Positions 1-55,294 of a stretch of DNA of 64,000 bases are shown here, one piece after another (within the stretch, counting starts at the first letter, position 1; the number at the start of each line of letters is the position of its first letter). The notes beneath the pieces are model-generated. The model was not told where the DNA came from, made no database searches, and saw only the letters and a program-made list of their open reading frames with translations. The stretch comes from Lytechinus pictus (Eukaryota), in assembly GCF_037042905.1 (NCBI RefSeq), contig NC_087245.1, positions 30,630,001 to 30,694,000 on the forward strand, given 5' to 3'. The translations under genes were made by a program, and so were the position numbers.

Positions 1-3000
1 GGACATTAGTTCGGCTCCCCCTTTGTCGAACATCAATTGGGTGCCTCTAGATCGATTATCAATTTGGCGCCCCTCTGGGGCAATATCAGTTCAGCCCCCC
101 CCCCCCCCCCCCCAGGTTGAACATCAATTCACCACCCCCTCCCCTAGGGTTTAGATCAATTCGACACCCCTATGTCGGACATTAATTCGGCTCCCCTTTG
201 TCAAACATCAATTTGGCCTCCCTAGGTGGAACATTATTCGGTGCCCCCTCCCCCCTAGGTGGAGCATTAATTCGGTGCCCCCTAGGTTTTTCACTAAATC
301 GGCAACCTTATGTCGAACATGAATTCGGCAACCTCCTATGTCGAACATTTATTCGGCGCCCTGAGTAAAATATAAAATCGGCGCCTACTTAGTTCGGACA
401 TTAATTCGGCTCCCCTTTGTCGAGCATCAACTTGGCGCCTCTAGATCGAATATCAATTTTGCGCCTTTTATGTGCAACATCAATTTAGCCCCCCCCCCGG
501 TTGAACATTAATTCAACGCCCGTCTTCCATGTTTAAGATCAATTCGACGCCCCTATGTCGAACATCAATTTGGCGCCCCCCTTGGTGCAACAACAATTCA
601 GCCCCCCCTTAGTTGAACATTAATTCGGAGCCCACTTGTCAAACATCCATTTGGCGCCACAAGACAAACGTCAAATTGGCGCCCCTAGGTCGAGCATCAA
701 TTGGCGCCCCTAGGTCGAACAATAATTCAATAATTCGGTGCCCCCCTTTGTCGAACACCAATTTGGCGCATCTACACCGAATATCGATTTTGCGCCCCTT
801 AGGGGCATCATCAATCCAGCCCCCCACCCCCAGGTTGAACATCAATTATACGCCCCTCCCCTAGGTTTAAGATCAATTCGACGCCCCTATGTCGAACATC
901 AATTTGGCGCCCCTCTGTCGAACATCAATTCGGCACCCTCCAATGTCGAACATCAATTTGGTGCCCCTCTGTCGAACATCAATTCGGCACCCTCCTATGT
1001 CGAACATCAATTCGGCGCCACTGAGTTAAATGTGAATTTGGCGCCTACCTAGGTCGGACACATTAATTCGGCGCCAACTTAAATCGGACATTAATTCGGC
1101 TCCCCTTTGTCGAACACCAATTCGGCGCCTCTACACCGAATATCGATTTTGAGCCCCTTAGGTGCATCATCAATCCAGCCCCCCACCCCCAGGTTGAACA
1201 TCAATTCAACGCCCGTCTTCCATGTTTAAGATCAATTCGACGCCCCTATGTCGACCATCAATTTGGCGCCCCTCTGTCGAACATCAATTCGGCACCCTCC
1301 TATGTCGAACATCAATTCGGCGCCACTGAGTAAAATGTGAATTCGGCGCCTATTTAGGTCGGACATTAGTTCGGCTCCCCCTTTGTCGAACATCAATTGG
1401 GTGCCTCTAGATCGATTATCAATTTGGCGCCCCTCTTGGGCAATATCAGTTCAGCCCCCCCCCCCCAGGTTGAACATCAATTCACCACCCCCTCCCCTAG
1501 GGTTTAGATCAATTCGACACCCCTATGTCGGACATTAATTCGGCTCCCCTTTGTCGAACATCAATTCGGCGCCTCTAGATCGAATATCGATTATGCGCCC
1601 CTTTTGGTGCAACATCAATTCAGCCCCCCTCCCCCAGGTTGAACATCAATTCACCACCCCCTCTCCTAGGGTTTAGATCAATTCGACACCCCTATGTCGG
1701 ACATTAATTCGGCTCCCCTTTGTCAAACATCAATTTGGCCTCCCTAGGTGGAACATTATTCGGTGCCCCCTAGGTGGAGCATTAATTCGGTGCCCCCTAG
1801 GTTTAACACTAAATCGGCAACCTTATGTCGAACATCAATTTGGCGCCCCTCTGTCGAACATCAATTCGGTACCCTCCTATGTCGAACATCAATTGGGCGC
1901 CTCTAGATCGAATATCAATTTGGCGCCCCTCTTGGTGCAACATCATTTCACCACCCCCTCCCCTAGGGTTTAGATCAATTCGACACCCCTCCCCTAGGTT
2001 TTAAGATCAATTCGACGCCCCTATGTCGAACATCTATTCGGCGCCCCCCTTGGTGCAACAACAATTCAGCTCCCCCCCCCCCCCTTGGTTGAACATTAAT
2101 TCGGAGCCCAAGTGACAAACATCCATTTGGCGCCACAAGACAAACGTCAAATTGGTGCCCTTTTGTCGAACATCAATTAGCGCCCCTAGGTCGAACATCG
2201 ATTCGGCACCCCTTCCTTAGGTTTAAGATCAATTCGATGCCCCTATGTCGATATCAATTTGGCGCCCCTCTTGGTGAAACATCAATTCAGCCCCCCCCCC
2301 CTGGTTGAACATCAATTCTGCATCCTCCTTTGTCGAGCATTAATTCGGCGCCCCTATGTCGAACATCAGTTGGGTGCCCCCCTAGGTTGAACATCAATTC
2401 TGCGCCCCCCTAGGTCAAATATTAATTCGGCACCTCTAGGTCTAACATCAATTTGGACCCCCCCCCCCCCCCTTGGTGCAATATAAATTCAGCCCCGCGA
2501 GGTTGAACATCAATACGGCGCCCCCCCCCCCTCCCCTAGGTTTAAGATCGATTAGGAGCCAACGTGTTAAACATCCATTTGGCGCCCAAAGACAAACGTC
2601 AAATTGGCTCCCCTATGTCAAACATAAATTTTGCGTCCTTAGGTTTAACACTAAATCGGCAACCTTATGTCGAACATGAATTCGGCGCCCTAAGTAAAAT
2701 ATGAATTCGGCGCCTACCTAGGTCGGACACATTAATTCGGCACCAACTTAGTTCGGACATTAATTTGGCTCCCCTTTGTCGAACATCAATTCGGCGCCTC
2801 TAGATCGAATATCAATTTTGCGCGTTTTAGGTGCAACATCAATTCAGCCCCCCCCCCCAGGTTGAACATCAATTCAACGCCCGTCTTCCATGTTTAAGAT
2901 CAATTTGACAAACGTCAAATTGGCGCCCCTAGGTCGAACATTAACTCGGCGCCCCCTCCCCTAAGTTTGAGATCAATTCGACACCCCTATGTCGAACATC

Positions 3001-6000
3001 GATTTGGCGTCCCCCTTGGTGAAACATCAAATCAGCCCCCCCCCCCTAATTGAACATCAATTCGGCGCCCAAGTATTTCGGACATTAATTCGACTCCCCC
3101 TTTGTCGAACGTAAATTCGGCGCCTCTACACATCGAATATCGATTTTGCGCCCCCTTGATGCAACTTCAATTCAGCCCCCCCCCCTCCCAGTTTGAACAT
3201 CAATTCGGCGCCCCTCCAATAGGTTAAAGATCAATTCGACGCCCCTTTGTCGAACATCGATTTGGCGGCGCCCCCCCCCCCCTTGGTAAAACATCAAATC
3301 AGCCCCCCCCTTGAACATCGATCCGGCGCCCCTATGTCGAATATCAATTCAGCCCCCCTGTTGAACATCAATTTGGCGCCCCTCCCGTAGGTTTAAGATC
3401 AATTCGACGCACCTATGTCGATCATCGACTTGGCGCCCCCCTTGGTGAAACATCAATTCAGCCCCCCCTCCCCTAGGTTGAACATTAATTCGGCGCCTCT
3501 AGGTCTAACATCAATTTGGCGCCCCCCCCCCCTGGTGCAACATAAATTCGGCGCCCCTCCACTAGGTTTAAGATCAATTCGACGCCCCTATGTCGAACAT
3601 CAATTTGGCGCCCCCCTTGGTGAAACATCAATTTAGCCCCCCCCCCCCCCGGTTGAACATTAATTCAACGCCCGTCTTCCATGTTTAAGATCAATTCGAC
3701 GCCCCTATGTCGAACATCAATTTGGCGCCCCCCTTGGTGCAACAACAATTCAGCCCCCCCCCCCCCCTTAGCTGAACATTAATTCGGAGCCCACGTGTCA
3801 AACATCCATTTGGCGCCACAAGACAAACGTCAAATTGGCGCCCCTAGGTCGAGCATCAATTGGCGCTCCTAGGTCGAACAATAATTCAATAATTCGGTGC
3901 CCCCCTTTGTCGAACACCAATTCGGCGCATCTACACCGAATATCGATTTTGCGCCCCTTAGGTGCATCATCAATCCAGCCCCCCACCCCCAGGTTGAACA
4001 TCAATTCGGCACCCTCCTATGTCGAACATCAATTCGGCGCCACTGAGTAAAATGTGAATTCGGCGCCTACCTAGGTCGGACACATTAATTCGGCGCCAAC
4101 TTAGTTCGGACATTAATTCGGCTCCCCTTTGTCGAACACCAATTCGGCGCCTCTACACCGAATATCGATTTTGAGCCCCTTAGGTGCATCATCAATCCAG
4201 CCCCCCACCCCCAGGTTGAACATCAATTCAACGCCCGTCTTCCATGTTTAAGATCAATTCGACGCCCCTATGTCGAACATCAATTTGGCGCCCCTCTGTC
4301 GAACATCAATTCGGCACCCTCCTATGTCGAACATCAATTCGGCGCCACTGAGTAAAATGTGAATTCGGCGCCTATTTAGGTCGGACATTAGTTCGGCTCC
4401 CCCTTTGTCGAACATCAATTGGGTGCCTCTAGATCGATTATCAATTTGGCGCCCCTCTGGGGCAATATCAGTTCAGCCCCCCCCCCCCAGGTTGAACATC
4501 AATTCACCACCCCCTCCCCTAGGGTTTAGATCAATTCGACACCCCTATGTCGGACATTAATTCGGCTCCCCTTTGTCAAACATCAATTTGGCCTCCCTAG
4601 GTGGAACATTATTCGGTGCCCCCTCCCCCCTAGGTGGAGCATTAATTCGGTGCCCCCTAGGTTTTTCACTAAATCGGCAACCTTATGTCGAACATGAATT
4701 CGGCAACCTCCTATGTCGAACATTTATTCGGCGCCCTGAGTAAAATATAAAATCGGCGCCTACTTAGTTCGGACATTAATTCGGCTCCCCTTTGTCGAGC
4801 ATCAACTTGGCGCCTCTAGATCGAATATCAATTTTGCGCCTTTTATGTGCAACATCAATTTAGCCCCCCCCCCGGTTGAACATTAATTCAACGCCCGTCT
4901 TCCATGTTTAAGATCAATTCGACGCCCCTATGTCGAACATCAATTTGGCGCCCCCCTTGGTGCAACAACAATTCAGCCCCCCCTTAGTTGAACATTAATT
5001 CGGAGCCCACTTGTCAAACATCCATTTGGCGCCACAAGACAAACGTCAAATTGGCGCCCCTAGGTCGAGCATCAATTGGCGCCCCTAGGTCGAACAATAA
5101 TTCAATAATTCGGTGCCCCCCTTTGTCGAACACCAATTTGGCGCATCTACACCGAATATCGATTTTGCGCCCCTTAGGTGCATCATCAATCCAGCCCCCC
5201 ACCCCCAGGTTGAACATCAATTATACGCCCCTCCCCTAGGTTTAAGATCAATTCGACGCCCCTATGTCGAACATCAATTTGGCGCCCCTCTGTCGAACAT
5301 CAATTCGGCACCCTCCAATGTCGAACATCAATTTGGTGCCCCTCTGTCGAACATCAATTCGGCACCCTCCTATGTCGAACATCAATTCGGCGCCACTGAG
5401 TTAAATGTGAATTTGGCGCCTACCTAGGTCGGACACATTAATTCGGCGCCAACTTAAATCGGACATTAATTCGGCTCCCCTTTGTCGAACACCAATTCGG
5501 CGCCTCTACACCGAATATCGATTTTGAGCCCCTTAGGTGCATCATCAATCCAGCCCCCCACCCCCAGGTTGAACATCAATTCAACGCCCGTCTTCCATGT
5601 TTAAGATCAATTCGACGCCCCTATGTCGACCATCAATTTGGCGCCCCTCTGTCGAACATCAATTCGGCACCCTCCTATGTCGAACATCAATTCGGCGCCA
5701 CTGAGTAAAATGTGAATTCGGCGCCTATTTAGGTCGGACATTAGTTCGGCTCCCCCTTTGTCGAACATCAATTGGGTGCCTCTAGATCGATTATCAATTT
5801 GGCGCCCCTCTTGGGCAATATCAGTTCAGCCCCCCCCCCCAGGTTGAACATCAATTCACCACCCCCTCCCCTAGGGTTTAGATCAATTCGACACCCCTAT
5901 GTCGGACATTAATTCGGCTCCCCTTTGTCGAACATCAATTCGGCGCCTCTAGATCGAATATCGATTATGCGCCCCTTTTGGTGCAACATCAATTCAGCCC

Positions 6001-9000
6001 CCCTCCCCCAGGTTGAACATCAATTCACCACCCCCTCTCCTAGGGTTTAGATCAATTCGACACCCCTATGTCGGACATTAATTCGGCTCCCCTTTGTCAA
6101 ACATCAATTTGGCCTCCCTAGGTGGAACATTATTCGGTGCCCCCTAGGTGGAGCATTAATTCGGTGCCCCCTAGGTTTAACACTAAATCGGCAACCTTAT
6201 GTCGAACATCAATTTGGCGCCCCTCTGTCGAACATCAATTCGGTACCCTCCTATGTCGAACATCAATTGGGCGCCTCTAGATCGAATATCAATTTGGCGC
6301 CCCTCTTGGTGCAACATCATTTCACCACCCCCTCCCCTAGGGTTTAGATCAATTCGACACCCCTCCCCTAGGTTTTAAGATCAATTCGACGCCCCTATGT
6401 CGAACATCTATTCGGCGCCCCCCTTGGTGCAACAACAATTCAGCTCCCCCCCCCCTTGGTTGAACATTAATTCGGAGCCCAAGTGACAAACATCCATTTG
6501 GCGCCACAAGACAAACGTCAAATTGGTGCCCTTTTGTCGAACATCAATTAGCGCCCCTAGGTCGAACATCGATTCGGCACCCCTTCCTTAGGTTTAAGAT
6601 CAATTCGATGCCCCTATGTCGATATCAATTTGGCGCCCCTCTTGGTGAAACATCAATTCAGCCCCCCCCCCTGGTTGAACATCAATTCTGCACCCTCCTT
6701 TGTCGAGCATTAATTCGGCGCCCCTATGTCGAACATCAGTTGGGTGCCCCCCTAGGTTGAACATCAATTCTGCGCCCCCCTAGGTCAAATATTAATTCGG
6801 CACCTCTAGGTCTAACATCAATTTGGACCCCCCCCCCCCTTGGTGCAATATAAATTCAGCCCCGCGAGGTTGAACATCAATACGGCGCCCCCCCCCCTCC
6901 CCTAGGTTTAAGATCGATTAGGAGCCAACGTGTTAAACATCCATTTGGCGCCCAAAGACAAACGTCAAATTGGCTCCCCTATGTCAAACATAAATTTTGC
7001 GTCCTTAGGTTTAACACTAAATCGGCAACCTTATGTCGAACATGAATTCGGCGCCCTAAGTAAAATATGAATTCGGCGCCTACCTAGGTCGGACACATTA
7101 ATTCGGCACCAACTTAGTTCGGACATTAATTTGGCTCCCCTTTGTCGAACATCAATTCGGCGCCTCTAGATCGAATATCAATTTTGCGCGTTTTAGGTGC
7201 AACATCAATTCAGTCCCCCCCCCCAGGTTGAACATCAATTCAACGCCCGTCTTCCATGTTTAAGATCAATTTGACAAACGTCAAATTGGCGCCCCTAGGT
7301 CGAACATTAACTCGGCGCCCCCTCCCCTAAGTTTGAGATCAATTCGACACCCCTATGTCGAACATCGATTTGGCGTCCCCCTTGGTGAAACATCAAATCA
7401 GCCCCCCCCCCCCTAATTGAACATCAATTCGGCGCCCAAGTATTTCGGACATTAATTCGACTCCCCCTTTGTCGAACGTAAATTCGGCGCCTCTACACAT
7501 CGAATATCGATTTTGCGCCCCCTTGATGCAACTTCAATTCAGCCCCCCCCCTCCCAGTTTGAACATCAATTCGGCGCCCCTCCAATAGGTTAAAGATCAA
7601 TTCGACGCCCCTTTGTCGAACATCGATTTGGCGGCGCCCCCCCCCCTTGGTAAAACATCAAATCAGCCCCCCCCCCTTGAACATCGATCCGGCGCCCCTA
7701 TGTCGAATATCAATTCAGCCCCCCTGTTGAACATCAATTTGGCGCCCCTCCCGTAGGTTTAAGATCAATTCGACGCACCTATGTCGATCATCGACTTGGC
7801 GCCCCCCTTGGTGAAACATCAATTCAGCCCCCCCTCCCCTAGGTTGAACATTAATTCGGCGCCTCTAGGTCTAACATCAATTTGGCGCCCCCCCCCCTGG
7901 TGCAACATAAATTCGGCGCCCCTCCACTAGGTTTAAGATCAATTCGACGCCCCTATGTCGAACATCAATTTGGCGCCCCCCTTGGTGAAACATCAATTTA
8001 GCCCCCCCCCCCCCGGTTGAACATTAATTCAACGCCCGTCTTCCATGTTTAAGATCAATTCGACGCCCCTATGTCGAACATCAATTTGGCGCCCCCCTTG
8101 GTGCAACAACAATTCAGCCCCCCCCCCCCCCCTTAGCTGAACATTAATTCGGAGCCCACGTGTCAAACATCCATTTGGCGCCACAAGACAAACGTCAAAT
8201 TGGCGCCCCTAGGTCGAGCATCAATTGGCGCTCCTAGGTCGAACAATAATTCAATAATTCGGTGCCCCCCTTTGTCGAACACCAATTCGGCGCATCTACA
8301 CCGAATATCGATTTTGCGCCCCTTAGGTGCATCATCAATCCAGCCCCCCACCCCCAGGTTGAACATCAATTCGGCACCCTCCTATGTCGAACATCAATTC
8401 GGCGCCACTGAGTAAAATGTGAATTCGGCGCCTACCTAGGTCGGACACATTAATTCGGCGCCAACTTAGTTCGGACATTAATTCGGCTCCCCTTTGTCGA
8501 ACACCAATTCGGCGCCTCTACACCGAATATCGATTTTGAGCCCCTTAGGTGCATCATCAATCCAGCCCCCCACCCCCAGGTTGAACATCAATTCAACGCC
8601 CGTCTTCCATGTTTAAGATCAATTCGACGCCCCTATGTCGAACATCAATTTGGCGCCCCTCTGTCGAACATCAATTCGGCACCCTCCTATGTCGAACATC
8701 AATTCGGCGCCACTGAGTAAAATGTGAATTCGGCGCCTATTTAGGTCGGACATTAGTTCGGCTCCCCCTTTGTCGAACATCAATTGGGTGCCTCTAGATC
8801 GATTATCAATTTGGCGCCCCTCTGGGGCAATATCAGTTCAGCCCCCCCCCCCAGGTTGAACATCAATTCACCACCCCCTCCCCTAGGGTTTAGATCAATT
8901 CGACACCCCTATGTCGGACATTAATTCGGCTCCCCTTTGTCAAACATCAATTTGGCCTCCCTAGGTGGAACATTATTCGGTGCCCCCTCCCCCCTAGGTG

Positions 9001-12000
9001 GAGCATTAATTCGGTGCCCCCTAGGTTTTTCACTAAATCGGCAACCTTATGTCGAACATGAATTCGGCAACCTCCTATGTCGAACATTTATTCGGCGCCC
9101 TGAGTAAAATATAAAATCGGCGCCTACTTAGTTCGGACATTAATTCGGCTCCCCTTTGTCGAGCATCAACTTGGCGCCTCTAGATCGAATATCAATTTTG
9201 CGCCTTTTATGTGCAACATCAATTTAGCCCCCCCCCCCCGGTTGAACATTAATTCAACGCCCGTCTTCCATGTTTAAGATCAATTCGACGCCCCTATGTC
9301 GAACATCAATTTGGCGCCCCCCTTGGTGCAACAACAATTCAGCCCCCCCTTAGTTGAACATTAATTCGGAGCCCACTTGTCAAACATCCATTTGGCGCCA
9401 CAAGACAAACGTCAAATTGGCGCCCCTAGGTCGAGCATCAATTGGCGCCCCTAGGTCGAACAATAATTCAATAATTCGGTGCCCCCCTTTGTCGAACACC
9501 AATTTGGCGCATCTACACCGAATATCGATTTTGCGCCCCTTAGGTGCATCATCAATCCAGCCCCCCACCCCCAGGTTGAACATCAATTATACGCCCCTCC
9601 CCTAGGTTTAAGATCAATTCGACGCCCCTATGTCGAACATCAATTTGGCGCCCCTCTGTCGAACATCAATTCGGCACCCTCCAATGTCGAACATCAATTT
9701 GGTGCCCCTCTGTCGAACATCAATTCGGCACCCTCCTATGTCGAACATCAATTCGGCGCCACTGAGTTAAATGTGAATTTGGCGCCTACCTAGGTCGGAC
9801 ACATTAATTCGGCGCCAACTTAAATCGGACATTAATTCGGCTCCCCTTTGTCGAACACCAATTCGGCGCCTCTACACCGAATATCGATTTTGAGCCCCTT
9901 AGGTGCATCATCAATCCAGCCCCCCACCCCCAGGTTGAACATCAATTCAACGCCCGTCTTCCATGTTTAAGATCAATTCGACGCCCCTATGTCGACCATC
10001 AATTTGGCGCCCCTCTGTCGAACATCAATTCGGCACCCTCCTATGTCGAACATCAATTCGGCGCCACTGAGTAAAATGTGAATTCGGCGCCTATTTAGGT
10101 CGGACATTAGTTCGGCTCCCCCTTTGTCGAACATCAATTGGGTGCCTCTAGATCGATTATCAATTTGGCGCCCCTCTTGGGCAATATCAGTTCAGCCCCC
10201 CCCCCCCAGGTTGAACATCAATTCACCACCCCCTCCCCTAGGGTTTAGATCAATTCGACACCCCTATGTCGGACATTAATTCGGCTCCCCTTTGTCGAAC
10301 ATCAATTCGGCGCCTCTAGATCGAATATCGATTATGCGCCCCTTTTGGTGCAACATCAATTCAGCCCCCCTCCCCCAGGTTGAACATCAATTCACCACCC
10401 CCTCTCCTAGGGTTTAGATCAATTCGACACCCCTATGTCGGACATTAATTCGGCTCCCCTTTGTCAAACATCAATTTGGCCTCCCTAGGTGGAACATTAT
10501 TCGGTGCCCCCTAGGTGGAGCATTAATTCGGTGCCCCCTAGGTTTAACACTAAATCGGCAACCTTATGTCGAACATCAATTTGGCGCCCCTCTGTCGAAC
10601 ATCAATTCGGTACCCTCCTATGTCGAACATCAATTGGGCGCCTCTAGATCGAATATCAATTTGGCGCCCCTCTTGGTGCAACATCATTTCACCACCCCCT
10701 CCCCTAGGGTTTAGATCAATTCGACACCCCTCCCCTAGGTTTTAAGATCAATTCGACGCCCCTATGTCGAACATCTATTCGGCGCCCCCCTTGGTGCAAC
10801 AACAATTCAGCTCCCCCCCCCCTTGGTTGAACATTAATTCGGAGCCCAAGTGACAAACATCCATTTGGCGCCACAAGACAAACGTCAAATTGGTGCCCTT
10901 TTGTCGAACATCAATTAGCGCCCCTAGGTCGAACATCGATTCGGCACCCCTTCCTTAGGTTTAAGATCAATTCGATGCCCCTATGTCGATATCAATTTGG
11001 CGCCCCTCTTGGTGAAACATCAATTCAGCCCCCCCCCCCTGGTTGAACATCAATTCTGCACCCTCCTTTGTCGAGCATTAATTCGGCGCCCCTATGTCGA
11101 ACATCAGTTGGGTGCCCCCCTAGGTTGAACATCAATTCTGCGCCCCCCTAGGTCAAATATTAATTCGGCACCTCTAGGTCTAACATCAATTTGGACCCCC
11201 CCCCCCCCCCTTGGTGCAATATAAATTCAGCCCCGCGAGGTTGAACATCAATACGGCGCCCCCCCCCCCCCCTCCCCTAGGTTTAAGATCGATTAGGAGC
11301 CAACGTGTTAAACATCCATTTGGCGCCCAAAGACAAACGTCAAATTGGCTCCCCTATGTCAAACATAAATTTTGCGTCCTTAGGTTTAACACTAAATCGG
11401 CAACCTTATGTCGAACATGAATTCGGCGCCCTAAGTAAAATATGAATTCGGCGCCTACCTAGGTCGGACACATTAATTCGGCACCAACTTAGTTCGGACA
11501 TTAATTTGGCTCCCCTTTGTCGAACATCAATTCGGCGCCTCTAGATCGAATATCAATTTTGCGCGTTTTAGGTGCAACATCAATTCAGCCCCCCCCCCCC
11601 CAGGTTGAACATCAATTCAACGCCCGTCTTCCATGTTTAAGATCAATTTGACAAACGTCAAATTGGCGCCCCTAGGTCGAACATTAACTCGGCGCCCCCT
11701 CCCCTAAGTTTGAGATCAATTCGACACCCCTATGTCGAACATCGATTTGGCGTCCCCCTTGGTGAAACATCAAATCAGCCCCCCCCCCCCCCTAATTGAA
11801 CATCAATTCGGCGCCCAAGTATTTCGGACATTAATTCGACTCCCCCTTTGTCGAACGTAAATTCGGCGCCTCTACACATCGAATATCGATTTTGCGCCCC
11901 CTTGATGCAACTTCAATTCAGCCCCCCCCCTCCCAGTTTGAACATCAATTCGGCGCCCCTCCAATAGGTTAAAGATCAATTCGACGCCCCTTTGTCGAAC

Positions 12001-27600: not shown

Positions 27601-28399
27601 CTCTGTCGAACATCAATTCGGCGCCTCTAGATCGAATATCGATTATGCGCCCCTTTTGGTGCAACATCAATTCAGCCCCCTTCCCCCAGGTTGAACATCA
27701 ATTCACCACCCCCTCCCCTAGGGTTTAGATCAATTCGACACCCCTATGTCGGACATTAATTCGGCTCCCCTTTGTCAAACATCAATTTGGCCTCCCTAGG
27801 TGGAACATTATTCGGTGCCCCCTAGGTGGAGCATTAATTCGGTGCCCCCTAGGTTTAACACTAAATCGGCAACCTTATGTCGAACATCAATTTGGCGCCC
27901 CTCTGTCGAACATCAATTCGGTACCCTCCTATGTCGAACATCAATTGGGCGCCTCTAGATCGAATATCAATTTGGCGCCCCTCTTGGTGCAACATCATTT
28001 CACCACCCCCTCCCCTAGGGTTTAGATCAATTCGACACCCCTCCCCTAGGTTTTAAGATCAATTCGACGCCCCTATGTCGAACATCTATTCGGCGCCCCC
28101 CTTGGTGCAACAACAATTCAGCTCCCCCCCCCCTTGGTTGAACATTAATTCGGAGCCCAAGTGACAAACATCCATTTGGCGCCACAAGACAAACGTCAAA
28201 TTGGTGCCCTTTTGTCGAACATCAATTAGCGCCCCTAGGTCGAACATCGATTCGGCACCCCTTCCTTAGGTTTAAGATCAATTCGATGCCCCTATGTCGA
28301 TATCAATTTGGCGCCCCTCTTGGTGAAACATCAATTCAGCCCCCCCCCCCTGGTTGAACATCAATTCTGCACCCTCCTTTGTCGAGCATTAATTCGGCG

Positions 28400-34300: not shown

Positions 34301-34400
34301 CCAAAGACAAACGTCAAATTGGCTCCCCTATGTCAAACATAAATGTTGCGTCCTTAGGTTTAACACTAAATCGGCAACCTTATGTCGAACATGAATTCGG
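28400..34400 (+). repeat. Intermediate satellite domain with rearranged ~1.8-2.2 kb units
   Basis: The block 'aacactaaatcggcaa..atgaattcggcaccctccta' recurs at ~30,420, ~32,590 and ~34,360. The second unit lacks ~400 bp present at ~31,110-31,510. Substitutions relative to the 4.37 kb HOR increase from ~28,400. Confidence 0.8.
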
Positions 34401-35696
34401 CACCCTCCTATTACGAGCATTAATTCGGCGCCCCTGAGTAAAATATGTATTCGGCGCCTACTTAGGTCGGATATTAATTTGGCGCCAACTTAGTTCGGAC
34501 ATTAATTCGGCTCCCCTTTGTCGAATATCGATTCGGCGCCTCTAGATCGAATATCAATTTTGCGCCCCTCTTTGTGCAACATCAATTCAGCCTCCCCCAG
34601 GTTGAACATCAATTCAACGCCCCTCCCCTTGTGTTTCAGATCAATTCGACGCCCCTATTTCGAACATCCATTTGGCGCCCCCCTTGGTACGACATCAATT
34701 TACCCCCCCCCCTAGGTGAACATCAACTCGAAGCCCACGTGTCCAACATCCATTTGGTGCCTCAAGACAAACGTCAAATTGGCGCCCTTATGTCAAATAT
34801 CAATTTGGTGCCCCTTGGTCGAACATTAATTCGGTGCCCCCTAGGTGGAACATCACTTCGATGCCCCTAGGTTTAACACTAAATCGGCATCCACATGTCG
34901 AATATCAATTCGGCGCCAAAAGGTCGAACATAAATTTGGCGCCCCCTCTGTCGAACATCTATTCGGCGCCTCACCCCCCTTCGGTTGAACATCAATTTGG
35001 CGCCCCCCCCCATTTCGAACTTCAATTCAGCGCCACCAGGTAGAACGTCACCTTGGTGCCCCCGTCATCATAGGTTTAAGATCAATTCGGTGCCCATTTG
35101 TCGAACATCAATTTTGCGCCCCCCCCCTTTGGTGCACCATCAATTCAGCCCCCCCCCCCCGGTTGAATATCAGCTCGGCGCCCCTATGTCGAACATTAAT
35201 TTTGCTCCCCCCCCCTCTTAGTTGAACATCAATTCTGCGCCCCCTTAAGGTAGAACATAAATTCGGCATCTCTACGTCGAATATTAATTTGGCGCCATCC
35301 CCCCTTGCCCCTTTGGTGCAACATAAATTCAGCCCCCCCCCCCCTGGTTGAATATCAGCTCGGCGCCCCTATGTCGAACATTAATTTTGCTCCGCCCCCC
35401 CCCCCCCCTTGGTTGAACATCAATTCAGCCCCGAAGTTGAACATTTATTCGGCGACCCCTCCCCTAGGTTTAAGATCAATTCGGAGCCCACGTGTCAAAC
35501 ATCCATTTGGCGCCCCAAGATAAATGTCAAATTGGCGCCCCTATGTCGAACAATAATTCAGCGCTCCCTGCAGTTTAACACCAATTTGGCGCCCCCCTTA
35601 GGTTGAACTTCAATTCGGCGCCCACCTTAGTCGGACATTTATTCGGCTCCCCCCTCTGTTGAACATTAATTTGGCGTCCCCTTATGTCGAACATTA

Positions 35697-36897
35697 TTTT
35701 ACTAATTAAAAACTCTGACAGTATTTGACATAATTACACTACAACGTTTATTGTTTATACTTGAGTATTTAAATGCGATGCTGCCACAATCATTTCAAAA
35801 TTGTTATATTTTAAATAACACCATTCATGATTACCCCACCTGTAATTCTTCTAAATTACATTAAATCAATCCAAAACTGCTTCTTGTCCAGAGATTGGAA
35901 TCCTCTCCCAGAATCAATTAAATCTTCTTGCTCCCTACACTCATTTAAAGCTTAAGTTAAAGGTCAAGTCCACCCCAGAAAAATGTTGATTTGAATAAAT
36001 AGAGAAAAATCAAACTAACATAATGCTGAAAATTTCATCAAAATCGGATGTAAAATAAGAAAAATATGACATTTTAAAGTTTCGCTTATTTTGCACAAAA
36101 CAGTTATGTGCACAACTCAGTGACATGCAAATGAGACAGTCGATGTCTATCACTCACTATTTCTTTTGTTTTTTATTGTTTGAATTATAAAATATTTCAT
36201 TTTTTACAGATTTGAAAATAAGGACCAACTTGACTGAACCATATAGTATTACACGATGCTAATTCCACATGTTCAGGCAGGAATTAATCATTGTTTCACT
36301 TGACAATAAGGAGAAAATTAGAATATTTCATATTTCATATAATAAAATATACAAAAGAAACAGTGAGTGGATGACATCATCAGTCACCTCATTTGCATAC
36401 CGACCAGGATGTGCATATAACTGTTTTGTGAAATTAAGCGAAACTTTAAAATGCCATAACTTTCTTAATTTACAGCCGATTTTGATGAAATTTTCAGTGT
36501 TATGCTTGGTGTACTTTTCTCTTTTGTTTCAAATCAACTTTTTGTTGGGGTGGACTTGTCCTTTAAGGTCAGCTTACTATCGGAATATGCAAGATAAACT
36601 TTCTGTGTCATCATCGTTTCCTATTCCTTCTCCACCATTATCATCATTATTTCCACCACCACCACCACCACCACCACAATACACCATTATATAATTAACT
36701 GATATTTTGATAATTCGTAATCATCCATTTTACTCATAATATGGTTATATAATTGATAAATGTTTTGGAATGTCATATTTTTAAGCATTTGTTTGCTTAC
36801 AATCCATATTCTGCAACTGAATTTATGAAAATATATCTACTATATTTATGTTATATTATATTGATACGTAGAAGAAAAAAAAAATCAAATCAAATCA
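35697..36897 (+). mobile_element. Decayed 3' fragment of a CR1/L2-group LINE, interrupted by a TTAA-flanked MITE
   Basis: Translates to a degraded RT C-terminus (YLNAMLPQSFQN..IHDYPT..WNPLPESIKSSCSLHSFK) with stops and deletions, then a (CCA)n-containing 3' UTR and an (AAATC)n tail. Confidence 0.8.
35961..36562. mobile_element. Non-autonomous DNA transposon (Kolobok-like MITE), 602 bp, TTAA TSD
   Basis: TTAA|AGGTCAAGTCCACCCCA...TGGGGTGGACTTGTCCT|TTAA with long imperfect inverted arms. The empty site GTTAAGGTCA is present in the paralogous LINE copy at ~41,991. Confidence 0.88.
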
Positions 36898-37116
36898 AAC
36901 ATCAATCCGGCGCCAATAGGTAGAACGTTAATTCGGCGCCCCCCCCCCCCTAGGTTTACGATCAATTCGGCGCCCCTATGTCGAACATCAATTTTGCGCA
37001 CCCCTTGGTGGAACATCAATTCAGCCCCCCCCCCCCCGTTGAACATCAATTCGGCCACCCTATGTCTAACATCAATTTGGCGCCCCAAGGCCGAGAATTA
37101 ATCCGGCGCCCCCTAG

Positions 37117-38434
37117 GTGGAACATCAATTCGGTGCCCCTCTATGTTTAACACAAATTCGGGGCCCCAAGGTAAAATATGAATTCGGCGCCTTCCTAGGT
37201 CGGAAATTATTTCGGCCCCCCTTAATTATGTCAATCATCAATTCGACGCTACCACCCCCCCCCCTCCTCGGTCGATCATCAATTTGGCGCCCCCTTATGT
37301 CGGACATCAATTCGGCATAACTAGGTAGAACGTTAATTCGGCGCCCCCTCCCCTAGGTTTAAGATCAACTCGGCGCCCCCTAGGTCGAACATCGATTCTG
37401 CGCACCCCCCCTTAGGTCGAACACCAATTCAGCACCCCTAGGTCGAACATCAATTCGGCGCCCCTTGGTCGAACATCGACTCGGCGCCCCCTCCCCCTCT
37501 AGGTCGAACTTAAATTCGGCACCCCCCCCTACGTCGAACATCGATTCGGTGCCCCCTAGGTTGAACGTCATTTCGGCGCCCTTCCCCTAGATTTAAGATC
37601 AATTCGGCGCCCCTTTGTCGAACATCAAATTGGCGCCCCCTTGGTGCAACATCATTTCAGCACCCCGAGGTTGAAAATCTATTCGGCACCCCTATGTCGA
37701 TCAATTTGGCGCCCCTAAGTTAAATATTCATTCCGCGCCCCCTAGGTTGAATATCAATTAACTCCCCTCCCCCCGGTGGAACATCAATTCGGTGCCCCTC
37801 TATGTTTAACACAAATTCGGGGCCCCAAAGTAAAATATGAATTCGGCGCCTTCCTAGGTCGGAAATTATTTCGGCCCCCCTTAATTATGTCAATCATCAA
37901 TTCGACGCTACCCCCCCCCCCCTCCTCGGTCGATCATCAATTTGGCGCCCCCTTATGTCGGACATCAATTCGGCATAACTAGGTAGAACGTTAATTCGGC
38001 GCCCCCTCCCCTAGGTTTAAGATCAACTCGGCGCCCCCTAGGTCGAACATCGATTCTGCGCACCCCCCCTTAGGTCGAACACCAATTCAGCACCCCTTGG
38101 TCGAACATCAATTCGGCGCCCCTTGGTCGAACATCGACTCGGCGCCCCCTCCCCCTCTAGGTCGAACTTGAATTCGGCACCCCCCCCCTACGTCGAACAT
38201 CGATTCGGTGCCCCCTAGGTTGAACGTCATTTCGGCGCCCTTCCCCTAGATTTAAGATCAATTCGGCGCCCCTTTGTCGAACATCAAATTGGCGCCCCCT
38301 TGGTGCAACATCATTTCAGCACCCCGAGGTTGAAAATCTATTCGGCACCCCTATGTCGATCAATTTGGCGCCCCTAAGTTAAATATTCATTCCGCGCCCC
38401 CTAGGTTGAATATCAATTAACTCCCCTCCCCCCG
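37117..38434 (+). repeat. 659 bp tandem duplication inside the degenerate satellite edge
   Basis: Near-identical sequence starts at 37,117 and 37,776 (matching ORF starts MEHQFGAPLCLTQIRGPKVKY). Confidence 0.9.
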
Positions 38435-38827
38435 GTTGAACAACAATTCGGCGCCAATAGGTTGCATGGCAATTTGACGCACCCCTCGGTTTAACACATT
38501 TTCGGCGCCCCCCTAAAATTGAACATCGATTCTCCGCCCCGCTAGGTCGAACATCAATTCGACGCCCCTAGGTCGAACATCGACTCGGCGCCACCTAGGT
38601 CGACCATAAATTCGGCACCCCCCCCCCTATGTCAAACATCAATTCGGCGCCCCCTAGGTTGAACATCAATTTTTGCAACAGTAGGTTGAACGTCGATTCG
38701 GCGCCCCCCTACCCTAGGTTGAAGATTAATTCGGCGCCTCTATGTCGAACGTCAATTTGGCGCCCCTTTGGTGCAACATCATTTCAGCCCCCCCCCCCAG
38801 ACTGAACATCGATTCGGCGCCCCCTAT

Positions 38828-40050
38828 TTATTTTTTTTAATTATTTATTTATTTATTCTTCACTTATTTGTTTATTCATTTATTTATTTATTTATTTATT
38901 TATTTATTTGTTTATTTATTCTTCACTTATTTGTTTATTCATTTATTTATTTGTTTATTTATTTATTTATTTATCTATCTATTTATTTCAATATATTTCT
39001 CCCGCGGGGTCCTGGAATACATGATAAAAACAAGTATAAACACATTTAAATACATATAAAATATACAAAGTAATATTTCAAATAACTTAACTCATATCAT
39101 AACAGAAAACAAAAAGCAAGCATACGGCATCGTTAAAAACATGATACTAATTAACAAAATTACACAAAAAGCAATACATATAAAAAAAAAAAAGTAGATA
39201 TACATAAAAAGTTGATTTCCATTTAAAAGGCAATAATAAAACTTAAAATTTAAAAAGATGCACTTTCAGTTTCTGTTTAAAACTTGATAGAGATTTTGAC
39301 TGTTTCAAATAAAATGGCAAGTTGTTCCAAAGTAAAATTGCTGAGTAAGATCAAGAGTGTTTGAAAATTTCGGTATGAGTTTTTGGGGTGATCAAATTAT
39401 CTTTTGCCGCATATCTAGTGTTAAAACAATGATAGTCACTTGCAAAAGTAAACACATTACGATAGAATCCCGATGACAGACCATTGATACATCTATACAT
39501 AAAAAATCACTTAAAATAGGTAACGCGATCGTTGAAAATTCACAAAAACATTTCTTTTGATGGGGTATAGGCTACAAATTACATTTTAGGATTAATCTAG
39601 CCGCTCTTTTTTTAAGTTTGATTATACGATCTATGTCCTTATTGAAACGCAACCCCCAGATTTCACAGTAATAATCAAGGTGTGATTGGACTAAACATAA
39701 GTATCGAGTCTTGAGGGTATTTTGGTCAACATAAGCCCTAACCCTTCTTAGCATACCTAGGCTGGCATACACCTTTTTACATACATTATCAACTTGGTAT
39801 TACCAAGATCGGTGTTGATCAATTAATTACTCCAAGACATTTTATCGTTGTACATCGTTCTATAACATCCCCATTAAATTTGAGAATTGCATCTTCCATA
39901 GAAAAAATAGATATCTTTTTTATCCGTGTTAAGCTTTAGTTTATTTACGTTTAACCATTCTTTTAAGGAATTCATATCATCCTGAAGCTTATATTGAATA
40001 TCTTGTGCAGACGTACTGTGAACATATAATGTGGTGTCGTCTGCGAACAT
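38828..40050 (-). mobile_element. Decayed 5'-truncated CR1/L2-group LINE, antisense to the satellite
   Basis: The minus strand reads MFADDTTLYVHS...LQDDMNSLKEWLNVNKLKLN, then (ORF 39572-39772) LGMLRRVR..HLDYYCEIWG..KRAARLIL, then WNNLP. It has frameshifts and a ~160 bp degenerate (TAAA)n tail at 38,828-38,986. Confidence 0.9.
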
Positions 40051-40939
40051 CAATTCAGCTCCCCTAAGGGAAATATGAATTCGGCGCCACCCCCTTGGTC
40101 AGACATTGATTTGACTCCCCCTATGTCGAACATCAATTCGGCGACACTGTGTAGAACGTCAATTCGGCGCCCCTACGTCGAACATCATTTTGGCGCCCCG
40201 CTAGGTGGAACATCAATTCAGCACCCAGGTTGAACATGAATTCGGTGCCTCTATGTCGAACACCAATTCGGCGCCCCCTAAGACGAACATGAATTAGTCA
40301 CCCCCCATGTCTAACATCGATTCGGTGCCCCTAGGTTGAACATCGATTCGGCGCCTTTAGGTCGAATATCATTATTTTGGAAATTTGTCAAATCTAGAAA
40401 GTCTGAGAGAATTTCTGTTGAATGTTAAAAACCATTTGGCGTCCCCTATGTCGAACATCGATTCGGCGCCACTAGGTAGAACAATTCGGTGCGCCCCTCC
40501 TAGGTCAAAGATAAATGCGGCGCCCCTATGTCGAACATCAATTTTGCGCCCCCTTGTTGGAAGATCAATGCAGCCACCTCCTCCCCCCCCCCCAAGGCTG
40601 AAAATTAATTCGGCGCCCTCCCCCTAGGTGGAACATCGGAGGAACATAGCAGCCCCCAGGTTGAACATAAATTCGGTGCCCCTTTATTTAACATAAATTT
40701 CGCGCCCCAGGACAAACATCAAATTGGCGCCCCCATGTTGAACATCAATTCAGCACCCCTAGGTCAAACATTAATTCGGCACTCTCTTAGGTTGAAAATC
40801 AATCCAGCCCCGCCCCCTAGATTAAAGATCGATTCGGCGCCCCTGTGTCAAACACCAATTTGGCAGCCCCTAGGTTGAACATCAATTCGGCGCCCCTAAG
40901 TGAAATATGTATTCGCCCCCCCCCCCTTGATCAGACATT

Positions 40940-41118
40940 TTTTAGCATTATTTGTATTTTAGTTTTGCTGTATATAATTACATGTATCCCTAAGTATTTG
41001 TAATCTTTCCTTTTATTAAGTGTATATTTTCTTTATGCAGGACCATTATGTGAAACAGCCTGCGAGCTGATTAATGTTTTATCCTGTTGAAAGATGTTTT
41101 AATAAATAAATAAATAAA
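40940..41118 (+). mobile_element. Extreme 3' end (UTR only) of a CR1/L2-group LINE
   Basis: AT-rich insert splitting a monomer (CAGACATT^GATTCGGCTCC), with a terminal stem-loop at 41,038-41,086 and a (TAAA)n tail. Confidence 0.75.
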
Positions 41119-41781
41119 TTGATTCGGCTCCCCACTGTGTCGAACATCGATTCGGTGTCACTTGGTAGAACGTCAATTCGGCGCCCCCGCTAGGTGGAAC
41201 ATCAATTCAGCCGCCCGGGTTGAACATAAATTCGGTGCCTCTATGTTGAACATCAATTCGCCACCACTAGGGCAAACGTCAACTTGGCGTCACCCTCGGT
41301 TTAACAATAATTCAGCGCCCCCTCAGGTCGAACATCAATTCGGCACCCCCCCCCTAAGTCGAACATAAATTTGGCACCCCCCATGTCAATCTTCAATTCG
41401 TCGCTACTAAATAAAATATGAATTCGGCGCCCACCTAGGTTTGACATTAATTCGGCTCCCCCTATGTCGAACATCGATTCGGCGCCCCTCCCTCTCCTCG
41501 GTCGATCATCAATTTGGCGCTCCCTATGTCGAAGATCAATTTGGCACCACTAGGTGGAACATCAATTCGGCGCCCCCTCCCCTAGGTTTGAGATCAATTC
41601 GGCGCCCCTATGTCGAACATCAATTTGACGCCCCCTTGGTGCAACATCAATTCGGCGCACCCCTAGGTCGAACATCGATTCGGCACCCCTTTAGTAAAAT
41701 ATGAATTCGGCGCCCATCCAGGTCGAACATAAATTTTCGAACATCAATTCGGCGCCCTCTCCCTCCCTCGGTTGAACATTA

Positions 41782-42438
41782 CTTTCTATATTTAAGTATT
41801 TAAATGGGATGCTACCATCATCATTTCAATTTGTTTACTTTGAATAAAACCATTTATGATTACCCTACCCGTTATTAATCTAATCTACATTAAATTAATC
41901 CAAAACTACTTCTTGTCCAGAGATACATAAGACATCACAATCCCAGAATCAATTAAATCCTCCTGCTCCCTACAGTCATTTAAAGCTAAAGTTAAGGTCA
42001 TGTTACTATCGGAATATGCGAGGTAAATTTTTCTGTCATAATCGTTTCCTATTCCTTTGCCACCACAATTATCACCACCACCACCACCATAATCATCATC
42101 ATCATCATCTTCATTTTCACCATCATTGTTTTTTTTCTTGACTATATATTATATAGCAAATTTTGGTTTGTTTGATTTTCTTTTTTTAATACTTAATTGA
42201 AATATTAATAATTCGTTTTCATCCATTCTGCTCATAATTATATATAATTACGATTACATAATTGATATATGTTTCGGTTTTTCATATTTTCACGCATTGT
42301 TTTGCTTACAATGGTGATCCATCTTCTGCTACTGATTTTATGTTCAATGATATCTTCCTCATATATTGTCACAATATATTTGTTATATTTATTTTATATT
42401 ATATTGGTATGTAGAATAAAACTAAATAAATAAATCAA
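41782..42438 (+). mobile_element. Second copy of the decayed LINE fragment at 35,697, without the MITE
   Basis: Colinear with 35,750-35,960 plus 36,567-36,890 (aatccaaaact.cttcttgtccagagat, cccagaatcaattaaatc, ttactatcggaatatgc, (CCA)n). Confidence 0.85.
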
Positions 42439-44818
42439 GTCGAACATTAATTCGGCGCCACTAGGTAGAACGTCAATTCGGTACCCATCCCCTCCTCTAG
42501 GTTTAAGATCTATTCGGCGGACCTATATCGAACATCAACCTGGTGCAGCAGTCAGGTGCCCCACTTGGTGGAACAACAATTCAGCCTCCTCCCCAAGGTT
42601 GAACATCAATTCGGCGCCCCTATGTCGAACATCAATTTGGCGCCCCAGGACAAACATCAAATTGGCGCCATTAGGTCGAACATGAATTCGGCTCCCCCTT
42701 TGTCAAACATCAAGTCGGCGCATCTAGGTCGAACATGAATTCGCCCCCCCCCCCTCTCGGTTGAATATCACTTTGGCGCCTCCCTATGTCGAACATCATT
42801 CAGCCCCCAATGTTGAACATCAATTCGGCTCCCCTTTGTCGAACATTAATTTTGCGCCCCTTAGGTGGAGCATTAATTCGGCGCCCCCCCCCCCCTCGGT
42901 TTAACATCAATTCGGCGCTCCCTAGGTCGAACATCGATTCGGCGCCCACCCAGGTCGAACATAAATTTGGCGCCCCCCCCCCCCTATGTCAAACATCTAT
43001 TCAGCCCCCAAGGTTGAACATCAATTCGGCTCCCCTATGTCGAACATCAATTCGGCGCCCCCTGTCGAACATCAATTCTGCGCCTCTAGGTCGAACACCA
43101 ATTTGGTGCCCCCGCCCCCTCGGTTGAACATCAATTTGGCGCCACTAGGTAGAACGTCAATTCAGCGCCGCTTTTGTAATGATAATTACTTTTCATTGTC
43201 TCTGATAGCATACTCTGAGAAGACACATGGCTAATTTTAAAGGGGAAAAGTAAAAAGGAAAACAAACTAATAAAAATAAATAATGCAATATTTATTGAAA
43301 TATGATTTGAAATTACTCGACTGGCCGCAACCTTGATACATAACATCACAAAGAGATATCCCTGAAACTATTTTTTTGTAATGTGTGGAAATTTGTAAAA
43401 TGTTGATTCAAAAATCGTCGAATTCTGAGCGGTTTTCACGTTTTGAAACTGTTAGCATACAATATTTCGCGTAATATCAGGACATAATAAGGCTTTGAAA
43501 TATATTTCTATATATCCACAGTTTGTGATCAAATAAATAGGAAATATTTGCAACACAAATTTCAAGACAAATCACTTCTCAGTTTTCCAATAATATTGGC
43601 GGCATTACACATCGCCACCGAAGGCTACAGTGCACCTGCGTATTCTTTCATACTTCTTTAGAAATAGAAAACTACATGAATTAATTTGCATTTCGTTGTC
43701 ACTCCCTCTTTTATAACTCCATGTTATTCCCAAGCGAGCAACTGAAGAGTTGTAATACTGATAGTTGCATATTGTCAAAAAGTGTTGTAAACTCATAATC
43801 AAGTATAATCATATCATGACCGTTAAGTTGGGTATACCTGTATAATTATGCATTTTTAAATAAAGTTGTAGCATCTGATGGGTGCAAGGCATTTCTTTGG
43901 CATTTTTTGTCATCATAATAGCCACGCCCACTTTTTTTCACAGAGGCCTCCCCATATTATTATGGCCTATCAGGTCCATGGAGTAAACATCACCTTTGAT
44001 ATCAAATTGAAGCCAATTAAAACGAAAATGCAGAAGAGGAAGAAAGAGAAAAAAGGGGAAAGAGAGACGAAAGAAAAAGAAAGTCACTAATTTGATACTT
44101 TTTTTTTAATAGAAAACAAAGTTGAAGAATATTTATGATTGTCAAATAGTCAAATTCTTCATCAGAAGAAATATCTGACTTACGAGTATAATCAACTCAA
44201 ATTGACTGATGCCAAGTAATAAGAAGACCCCCCCCCCCACAGACCATGTTTGGTATCAAATTTAACTCATTGCAGATGGAATGTAACTATAAAGGTTAGA
44301 AGATATATTTAAACATCATGTAATGTCTTGAACAGTCTTTATCATATTTAACAAAATACGTGTAACATCAAATCAGTCCACGTATGTGAAATAAGATCGA
44401 TTTTTTAATAGTTTGATACAAAATTATATATATTCATCAAGTTCAAGGCAGTTCAAATAGCTATGGTTATACAAATTAAAATATGTTTGTGATAATGTAT
44501 AAGTTTATGTATAATATTTTGCCAGTACCATCCAAATTGTTTGAATGGAAATGAAAGGATTTTGGTATTAATTGTAACTAATGTGACCAAAAGAGAGATT
44601 TAATGCATGTATTTTTCCTTTGGTTTGTGATTTGGTTAAATAACTTTGGAATACTGTAAAAATAGTGATACGTAACGTCTGTTGTAAGAATTGTGTGTTT
44701 TTACCTCAGTGTGCCATATAGAACTAAGGTACAAAGTCAGAAACTACATAACATGTTCCAAATATCATGTGACATTAACCTAGGACCGTGATCCATTTCG
44801 ATCTTTTATAACCTTTAA

Positions 44819-45564: not shown

Positions 45565-45971
45565 TTGAATTACCAACTGATATGCGTTATTCATTTTTTC
45601 ATCACAATGAAATAGTGTGGAATTACATATAGAGTTGCCGTTAGTACTACCTATTATCATTCAACGAAGAGCTTACTTAGGCCTATTATCAAATATATAA
45701 ATTTGAAATATTCCATCATTTACAAATGAAATACATAAGAAATATAGTGCATGACATCATCGCCTATCCTGCTACTATATCATAGGTGAAAATAAGCTAA
45801 TGTCATAACTTTTTTAATTTACCTCCGAATTTTAGTGAAATTTTTCAGCATTATGGTTTGAATTTGTATTTTCTCTATCATTCAAATTAAATTTTTGATA
45901 ACATGGCCTTTAAAAAACCTCAAGTCTTTGAGTGAGTTTGAGTTGAAAATGTTTTTTCATGTCAAATTTCT

Positions 45972-55284: not shown

Positions 55285-55294
55285 ACCAGTCCTG

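Follow-up and report, generated by a model that had tools for sequence, protein, structure and literature searches.

Very short monomers arranged in multi-kb units, which the first-pass annotation of this sea urchin DNA had called unusual, are already known from human HSat2 and HSat3, non-kinetochore satellites that make up blocks of heterochromatin next to centromeres and on distal Yq (PMC4022460). These are nested tandem repeats, with a unit of 1.77 kb for HSat2 on chromosome 1 and of 3.6 kb for DYZ1 on Yq (PMC4022460; 10.1101/2021.07.12.452052). The satellite array of Lytechinus pictus described here is real, and as a short-monomer satellite it has apparently not been described before. Like HSat2 and HSat3, it combines a very short, diverged monomer with multi-kb units and a periodicity that varies along one array. 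Unlike them, it has discrete monomers (26-35 bp) that can be typed and a known extent of at least 43 kb; we claim no sequence relation. Monomer types recur within one unit, as in the cascading higher-order repeats (HORs) of alpha satellite covered by PMC11050224. The urchin array differs from these in its 26-28-bp rather than 171-bp monomer, its ~157 monomers per unit and its variable poly-C spacers. An orangutan study reportedly found alpha-satellite units of 58 and 59 monomers.

Alpha-satellite centromeres hold older LINEs outside the core and, within it, only a young one (10.1101/2021.07.12.452052). The urchin array shares with the layered expansion of primate centromeres a homogeneous core, diverged HOR layers, a monomeric layer and a LINE age pattern, but it is seen on one side, its layers measure a few kb, inversions are absent and an edge-type tract lies inside the core. 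Tetris of Drosophila virilis is said to be a satellite-armed foldback element. Foldbacks of this type resemble the present array in being interstitial, tens of kb long and set among transposons, whereas the right end of the urchin array shows neither an inverted arm nor a terminal repeat or target duplication. We read the window (the whole 64,000-nucleotide stretch that was analysed) as covering the right end of a non-coding satellite array, which is most probably (roughly 0.65) a locus-level block without a kinetochore.

Monomers, units and layers

The array comprises ~1,370 monomers (1,373 counted) of 26-28 bp that lie head to tail on one strand across positions 1-43,170, the many-kb arrangement by which satellite DNA is recognised. 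A 26-bp period persists throughout 1-43.2 kb (lag-26 match of 0.433 versus 0.262 ± 0.007 in 200 shuffles), and 1,015 of the 1,016 good core-motif matches are on the plus strand, the last at ~43,166; a lone minus-strand match lies at 51.9 kb. The median monomer-to-monomer spacing was 27 bp and the 4,369-bp unit contained 156-159 monomers according to which anchor rule was used, in agreement with the earlier estimate of a ~26-35-bp base monomer repeated ~150 times per HOR. The short monomer has a GC content of ~50%, and the array continues past the left end of the window. Exact searches with the monomer motif gave 0 matches in metagenome contigs and 0 in viral contigs.

Table 1. Layers, rearrangements and insertions within the array (positions are those of the window).
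Feature	Positions	Strand	Evidence or remark
Layer A, homogeneous 4.37-kb higher-order unit, ~157 monomers	1-26,759	+	copy alignment, monomer counts
Edge-type (3.15-kb unit) segment within layer A, closed by a 1,029-bp jump back	12,606-14,227	+	15 variants in common with 26,816-27,716
1.217-kb extra module (example), copy of a 3.15-kb unit with an internal deletion	21,155-22,370	+	block alignment to edge unit
Young 5'-truncated LINE, 1,237 bp, inside core	23,390-24,626	+	RVT_1, E 1.6e-8
Layer B, 3.15-kb-type edge unit	26,760-29,690	+	distal part 99.3% identical to layer A (16 substitutions/2,252 bp)
Layer C1, ~1.93-kb unit, ~70 monomers, mosaic	29,831-31,760	+	block comparison
Layers C2 and C3, 1.77-kb unit, 63 monomers, ~1.6 copies	31,766-34,660	+	~98% alike
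Layer D, monomeric satellite, no long-range order	34,661-43,170	+	72-78% best non-self identity, duplication excepted
Old LINE 3' end, short tandem tail	35,697-36,897	+	82% identical to the LINE end at 41,781
TTAA-flanked MITE nested in the 35,697-36,897 LINE	35,961-36,562		relatives in flank
Young 656-bp tandem duplication in old layer, two copies	37,130-38,446	+	99.2% alike, 5 substitutions/656 bp
Decayed LINE 3' end, stops and frameshift	38,827-40,043	-	tblastn E 1e-14; RT 30-46% amino-acid identity to young LINE
AT-rich 60-bp insert	40,373-40,432		inside layer D
Short LINE or SINE 3' end, (AAAT)n tail	40,939-41,119	+	stem-loop similar in shape to the young LINE's (z -0.84, not significant)
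Decayed LINE 3' end: broken ORF2 end, 3' UTR, tail	41,781-42,438	+	sequence comparison

Layer A contains three whole copies of its unit (1-4382, 4383-8747 and 17,301-21,669) and three partial ones. Relative to the copy at 17,301-21,669, the others showed 0-3 substitutions and 3-13 poly-C length changes per segment, with five private substitutions across ~23.8 kb of aligned copies. Poly-C aside, the copies are 99.9% alike, versus 65.6% between distinct monomers, as expected of a higher-order repeat. At a cut of five mismatches, the 156 monomers of one unit fell into 29 types, including 7 singletons, so that types recur within the unit; the number of types ranged from 16 to 62 over the cuts tried. 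Sub-periods of 169, 305, 359, 1,355 and 3,014-3,151 bp were found within the unit, and the first of these, among the main short periods, corresponds to six monomers and to about one nucleosome. When the 1.217-kb module was aligned to the edge unit, three of four blocks were 100%, 99.0% and 98.7% identical and one was 88% identical, and the 4.37-kb unit is thereby shown, to judge from this alignment, to consist of a 3.15-kb unit joined to a shortened second copy of it. The near-identical 4.37-kb HOR reported earlier for 1-28.4 kb was confirmed in its small divergence, but its phase persists at 99.3% to ~29.67 kb, and it is not uninterrupted, being broken by the LINE end in the core and by the rearranged unit at 12,606-14,227.

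Long-range identity declines outwards from 100% to 98-99%, then 82-99% and finally 72-78%, while the unit length steps up leftwards from 1.77 to 1.9-2.2, 3.15 and 4.37 kb. Rearranged units of 1.8-2.2 kb had been noted in the first-pass annotation, and units of 1.77 and ~2.17 kb were indeed present within 29.7-34.5 kb. Differences in shared blocks of 170-250 bp follow position (0-4 between A and B, 2-11 between A and C1, 5-16 between A and C2 or C3), and the comparison of A with D gave 20 differences in 154 bp. The mosaic layer C1 has an A/B-like head (2 differences in 172-183 bp) and a middle identical to C2 (0 in 210 bp). The outer monomers cannot be called degenerate, as they had been, with a mean identity to consensus of 80.5% (n = 190) versus 78.4% in the core (n = 909); only the higher-order arrangement is missing. 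Inserted DNA makes up ~38% of 34,450-43,170. The homogeneity gradient is not monotonic because an edge-type unit recurs in the core. Positions 11,193-14,227 equal 25,357-28,378 without internal substitution and include the 15 variants diagnostic of the edge unit, a tract of edge type having been copied 14.2 kb inwards with zero substitutions. The junction at 14,227 falls in monomer register, within a 23-bp homology with one mismatch, and all three placeable junctions (12,606, 14,227 and 37,786) are in register.

Proposed growth of the array, and its insertions

Satellite arrays in general have a better-homogenised centre and divergent ends, and gain longer units through cycles of duplication (PMC5615363). 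The layered order seen here agrees with local unequal exchange, a process by which any satellite keeps its older parts at the ends. We propose that the 26-28-bp monomer diversified into types and that misaligned exchange or template switching between in-register monomers lengthened the units, which would have grown from 3-6-mers through 0.66-1.8 kb, ~2 kb and 3.15 kb to 4.37 kb. Each new unit would be amplified on the inner side, with older units left at the edge, where exchange may be rarer and retroelements may accumulate. The 656-bp duplication is a new unit starting within the old layer, and the 4.4-kb block has evidently been copied very recently. From ~2e-4 substitutions per site, the homogenised copies would be 2e4-1e5 generations old, assuming 2-10e-9 per site per generation, although conversion could mask a greater age.

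The core holds an intact LINE; the LINE copies outside it have decayed. We take the young element to belong to a CR1/L2-like clade; it retains 299 open codons including the RT end, a 3' UTR with a stem-loop (z -3.07) and an (AAAT)n tail, with a target duplication of 0-1 bp. In the one sequencing run listed (X1), contigs of 220 and 226 bp matched it with one mismatch each. The four old LINE fragments noted earlier in the outer layer correspond to four LINE-type 3' fragments within 35.7-42.4 kb, and relatives of the nested MITE lie in the flank at 44.9, 45.4-45.9, 49.1-49.6 and 58.3-58.5 kb. Insertions were enriched in the outer satellite (5 per 5.4 kb versus 1 per 33.2 kb in the inner satellite; p = 0.0003, or p = 0.03 when only non-redundant sequence was considered). 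The age gradient of layers and embedded LINEs is thus seen on one side, with two local exceptions (12.6-14.2 and 37.1-38.4 kb). A site-specific LINE was rejected, as the five junctions occupy differing points of the monomer. All five, one of them on the minus strand, lie within ~10 bp of the AT-richer monomer core, a number too small for a test of preference. For the two related LINE ends, origin as one duplicated insertion was considered: the score of the 3' flanks ranked within the highest 2.6% among 3,651 background pairs and that of the 5' flanks was at background. Independent insertions are preferred because both junctions differ.

Several observations count against a locus-level block that lacks a kinetochore. 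Contigs of the same run carry family members in other arrangements, and the family may therefore exceed one locus. In addition, the array runs off the window edge, the LINEs show an age pattern, a 169-bp sub-period is present and no flank gene was found.

Base composition and flanking DNA

The array has a CpG observed/expected ratio of 0.94-1.15. Transitions affected 16 of 746 CpG sites versus 47 of 5,529, a 2.5-fold excess (p = 0.003) that is unpolarised and biased upwards, and germline methylation of the array is therefore probably weak at most. C/G skew is strong, with 12-14% of array windows at G4Hunter ≥1.2 versus 1% in the flank, and only 0-1 canonical four-tract G-quadruplex/i-motif was found per layer.

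Old repeats are abundant to the right of the array, as expected from its first description as a transposon-rich flank, and the CpG ratio falls to 0.41 and 0.34 within 54-64 kb. In a starfish, the methylated parts are gene bodies and repeats (PMC12550476), and the low CpG therefore makes a gene body ~11 kb from the array edge possible; it could equally reflect methylated repeats. None of 9 flank frames matched Pfam, a candidate exon at 59,216-59,587 had 0 matches among 1.84 billion proteins, a splice-site scan of the flank yielded one candidate exon, within a repeat, and two of the candidate frames coincide in part with old repeats that form an inverted pair.

Alternative readings and significance

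Nothing seen in the window shows a centromere. The first-pass annotation had recognised a layered satellite whose younger part lies on the left and whose right side carries more retroelements, which holds; its further step to a centromere or pericentromere edge is unsupported by the tests. A homogenised centre with divergent ends is a general property of satellites and is expected at any array end. That an active centromere or the heterochromatin flanking it has its edge in the window, expanding in layers as primate alpha satellite does, is in our estimate unlikely. The order from homogeneous core through diverged higher-order layers to a monomeric layer, together with the age gradient of the LINEs, is that described for human centromeres, the array is open leftwards, and the 169-bp sub-period would suit this reading. 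Neither length nor GC content is conserved among centromere repeats (PMC4053949), and a short monomer therefore does not rule out a centromere. Against it, only 13.5 kb in total separate 99% identity from unique flank, and excess folding was absent in six of six strands (z -1.88 to +0.54). Excess hairpin or dyad folding has been proposed for centromeres lacking CENP-B and is not a strict criterion. The array contains 0 CENP-B box cores, which is uninformative outside mammals. Candidate centromere repeats of three urchins measure 163, 213 and 399 bp at 38-40% GC and differ from the present monomer when compared by length, GC and eye, a weak contrast because the survey left out monomers <50 bp (PMC4053949). 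The specific proposal of an echinoderm centromere edge, with a CENP-A-bearing cascading repeat of ~157 monomers and its predecessors (1.77, ~2 and 3.15 kb) alongside by age, is rather unlikely. If true, an echinoderm centromere edge would here be seen for the first time at sequence level, including a six-monomer module the size of a nucleosome; sea-urchin centromeres could then be probed directly, and the array would document compactly how a giant higher-order unit was assembled.

We regard it as quite improbable that the array belongs to a foldback or other non-autonomous transposon as its overgrown arm or inner repeat. The monomer core has a weak dyad, and sub-terminal binding repeats often have one. 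However, the 20.8 kb on the right contain no inverted arm and only the single minus-strand core match already mentioned; the array fades inside one monomer at ~43,170-43,190, and no flank repeat pairs with its end.

It is very improbable that the near-identical 4.37-kb copies are in part an assembly artefact, such as an over-expanded or mis-joined repeat. The copies are almost identical, and the long poly-C runs vary as long-read consensus error would make them (54 of 100 copies with runs ≥9 off their mode versus 3 of 599 for shorter runs), although slippage also accounts for these changes. No listed sequencing run contained half of the unit's words (X1 had 0.09 of 359 sampled from one unit), no RNA run with the unit was listed, which carries no information on expression, and no LINE junction was bridged among the 8 contig pieces listed. 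Twenty-six X1 contigs were placed on 23,150-26,400 (3.25 of 43 kb), a layout whose holes prove nothing, with identities of ≥99% for 4, 95-99% for 7, 90-95% for 8 and <90% for 7. Against an artefact, private markers (804, 2,323, 7,214, 12,606-14,227, ~18,330, 23,390 and 25,356) are at most ~5.4 kb apart, within long-read reach, and the 14,227 junction is unique and lies on short, imperfect homology. A coding or micro-exon array is close to refuted, since neither strand of one unit carries a donor-like or a T-rich acceptor-like site (0 of each; the flank has 5.6-8.5 donor-like sites per unit length), its longest stop-free frames reach 68-108 codons, frames would shift with poly-C length changes, and an Rfam search gave 0 matches.

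In its present form, the array is a clean small-scale record of higher-order repeat growth, with four unit sizes side by side. It shows that 14 kb at the end of an array is enough to display a "centromere-like" gradient, which is insufficient to call a centromere. Copy number and polymorphism could readily be tested with the private LINE insertion as a marker. If CENP-A were found on the array, it would offer, as far as our literature searches found, the first molecular handle on sea-urchin centromeres.

Layered organization of the array

The tandem array is already under way at window position 1 and ends on the right near 43,170. Its 26-bp period stands far above chance (0.433, against 0.262 ± 0.007 in shuffles), and monomer spacing is largely 25–32 bp because the poly-C runs vary in length. 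An anchor search placed all monomers outside insertions (n = 1,373) on the + strand, which is C-rich (∼650 C vs 350 G per 2 kb). CpG observed/expected is ∼1, with at most a weak decay within the array. Searching the satellite against Rfam gave 0 matches, and neither splice-like sites nor long reading frames were found in one unit.

Features of the array and its flank (window coordinates)
Feature	Position	Properties
Layer A	1-26,759	unit 4,365-4,382 bp, 156-159 monomers
Edge-type segment in layer A	12,606-14,227	follows edge-unit path, has its 15 marker variants
LINE end in layer A	23,390-24,626	1,237 bp
Layer C1	29,831-31,760	
Layers C2/C3	31,766-34,660	
Layer D	34,661-43,170	
TTAA-flanked MITE family	35,961-36,562; 44,860-45,070; 45,410-45,900; 49,089-49,621; 58,281-58,529	at least 5 copies/relics in 24 kb
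GC-rich 28-bp minisatellite	48,268-48,998	∼26 copies, 96-99% identity, few shortened units
Short palindromic elements, six more in flank	46,706-46,944; 47,175-47,363; 49,852-50,081; 51,692-51,957; 53,050-53,329; 55,606-55,714	67-85% arm identity

Layer A had been described in the first-pass annotation as a near-identical 4.37-kb higher-order repeat. The near-identity held, as each segment differs from the reference copy (17,301–21,669) by 0–3 substitutions, with no internal indel except in homopolymers; however, two interruptions had gone unmentioned, namely the edge-type segment and the LINE end. Private substitutions number 5 over ∼23.8 kb, a count that excludes two differences located at junctions. 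Poly-C runs of at least 9 deviate from the mode in 54 of 100 copies and shorter runs in 3 of 599, variation that may reflect slippage or consensus error. Identity between distinct monomers is just 65.6%; a cut at 5 mismatches sorts them into 29 types, the majority of which recur several times per unit. Recurrence of monomer types within one unit defines a cascading higher-order repeat in the accessible text of PMC11050224, and the layer A unit is one by that definition.

The 4.37-kb phase persists at 99.3% to ∼29.67 kb, as a 3.15-kb-type unit (layer B), beyond which lie a mosaic unit of ∼1.93 kb (C1) and then ∼1.6 copies of a 1.77-kb unit, ∼98% alike (C2/C3). One backbone of monomer types is common to layers A, B, and C. 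Differences in shared blocks increase with distance along the array: per 170–250 bp, layer A shows 0–4 to B, 2–11 to C1, and 5–16 to C2/C3, and 20 in 154 bp to the outermost layer, D. The exception to this ladder is the middle of C1, which is identical to C2. The unit of A is longer than that of B by 1.217 kb, and this extra sequence aligns with B in order (100%, 99.0%, 88%, and 98.7%); the newest (4.37-kb) unit is the neighboring 3.15-kb-type unit plus a shortened copy of it.

The edge-type segment terminates by a 1,029-bp jump back, at a junction in monomer register, and 11,193–14,227 equals 25,357–28,378 with zero internal substitutions. Edge sequence either was copied 14.2 kb inwards or survives there, and with such a tract in the core the homogeneity gradient is therefore not monotonic.

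Insertions and the flank

The LINE end in layer A keeps 299 codons open, and these include an RT end (RVT_1, E 1.6e-8); the nearest Atlas clusters of its protein are RT proteins (score 0.95–0.96). A stem-loop at 24,545–24,590 (z −3.07) is followed by an (AAAT)n tail, and the target duplication is 0–1 bp. The element is a putative member of a CR1/L2-like clade; L2-type elements carry a stem-loop directly ahead of the 3' tail. Contigs of X1, a sequencing run matched to part of the array (23,150–26,400), match this LINE with 1 mismatch in 220 bp and 1 in 226 bp, so near-identical copies are present elsewhere; this LINE family has probably been active until recently or still is.

Layer D is without long-range order (best non-self identity 72–78%) and contains a young 656-bp duplication with 5 substitutions. 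Its monomers, previously termed degenerate, match the consensus as closely as core monomers do (80.5% vs 78.4%), and monomeric is the fitting term. The four LINE-type ends in this layer, one of them with a TTAA-flanked MITE nested in it, make up 38% of its length together with a 60-bp insert; one LINE-type end retains a broken RT frame and another a broken ORF2 end. Insertion density is 5 in 5.4 kb in D versus 1 in 33.2 kb in A–C. The insertion points in the satellite differ, so nothing suggests a site-specific element. The 60-bp insert (40,373–40,432) is AT-rich and matches nothing elsewhere in the window. At the LINE-type 3' end at 41,037–41,088, a stem-loop just before the tail (z −0.84) resembles in shape that at 24,545–24,590.

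The flank (43.2–64 kb) holds old MITE-like repeats, 66–85% alike; no genes were found in it. The 28-bp minisatellite is unrelated to the main satellite, has several frames open, and sits within ∼1 kb of unexplained sequence (48.0–49.06 kb). Low-complexity, pyrimidine-rich sequence occupies ∼400 bp at 47,424–47,830, and a short AT-rich, repeat-like stretch (61,700–62,050) resembles by eye a 163-bp urchin candidate repeat. A 290-bp repeat forms an inverted pair (55,920–56,203 and 60,519–60,807, 78% alike), both copies of which are overlapped by stop-free frames of >100 codons that Pfam does not match. CpG observed/expected is 0.7 at 43–54 kb and 0.34–0.41 at 54–64 kb. The methylated parts of the genome in a starfish are gene bodies and repeats, according to the accessible text of PMC12550476; given this pattern and the low CpG, the distal flank (54–64 kb) may be a methylated intron, and no exons were found in 54,000–64,000.

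Probable growth of the array and comparison with centromeres

The sequence shows which units are present, in what order they lie, how they are related, and that the junctions are in register; from this we infer an exchange mechanism, a growth direction, and an age. Most likely, new multimer junctions would arise when similar monomers misalign and exchange, or through template switching between them, each new unit would be amplified on the inner side, and older units would remain at the array end, where homogenization is weaker and insertions persist. The available text of a review (PMC5615363) reports satellite array centers more homogenized than ends, and duplication cycles that generate longer units.

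That the window is an active centromere or the direct flank of one is unlikely. The anatomy fits the layered-expansion picture of human centromeres, in which, too, the core holds a young LINE and the old LINEs lie outside it (10.1101/2021.07.12.452052, accessible text), and a 169-bp sub-period was found in the array; but a homogeneity gradient is generic to satellite arrays, the old layers cover just 13.5 kb, and folding does not exceed shuffles. HSat2/3, heterochromatic blocks adjoining centromeres and on Yq, are also built from short monomers within multi-kb units (PMC4022460, accessible text). Published candidate repeats of three urchins are AT-rich and 163–399 bp, in a survey that left out monomers <50 bp (PMC4053949, accessible text). 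That the array is a transposon arm is improbable, and that its near-identical copies are an assembly effect is very improbable. Related monomers also occur in X1 contigs, where they are arranged differently. These contigs show that the satellite family exists independently of this assembly, but give no confirmation of the copy number.

Among the literature titles listed, from sources other than subscription journals, Repbase, and Dfam, none described the satellite family or a sea-urchin centromere sequence. The satellite family looks undescribed, and the architecture of the array is already known.
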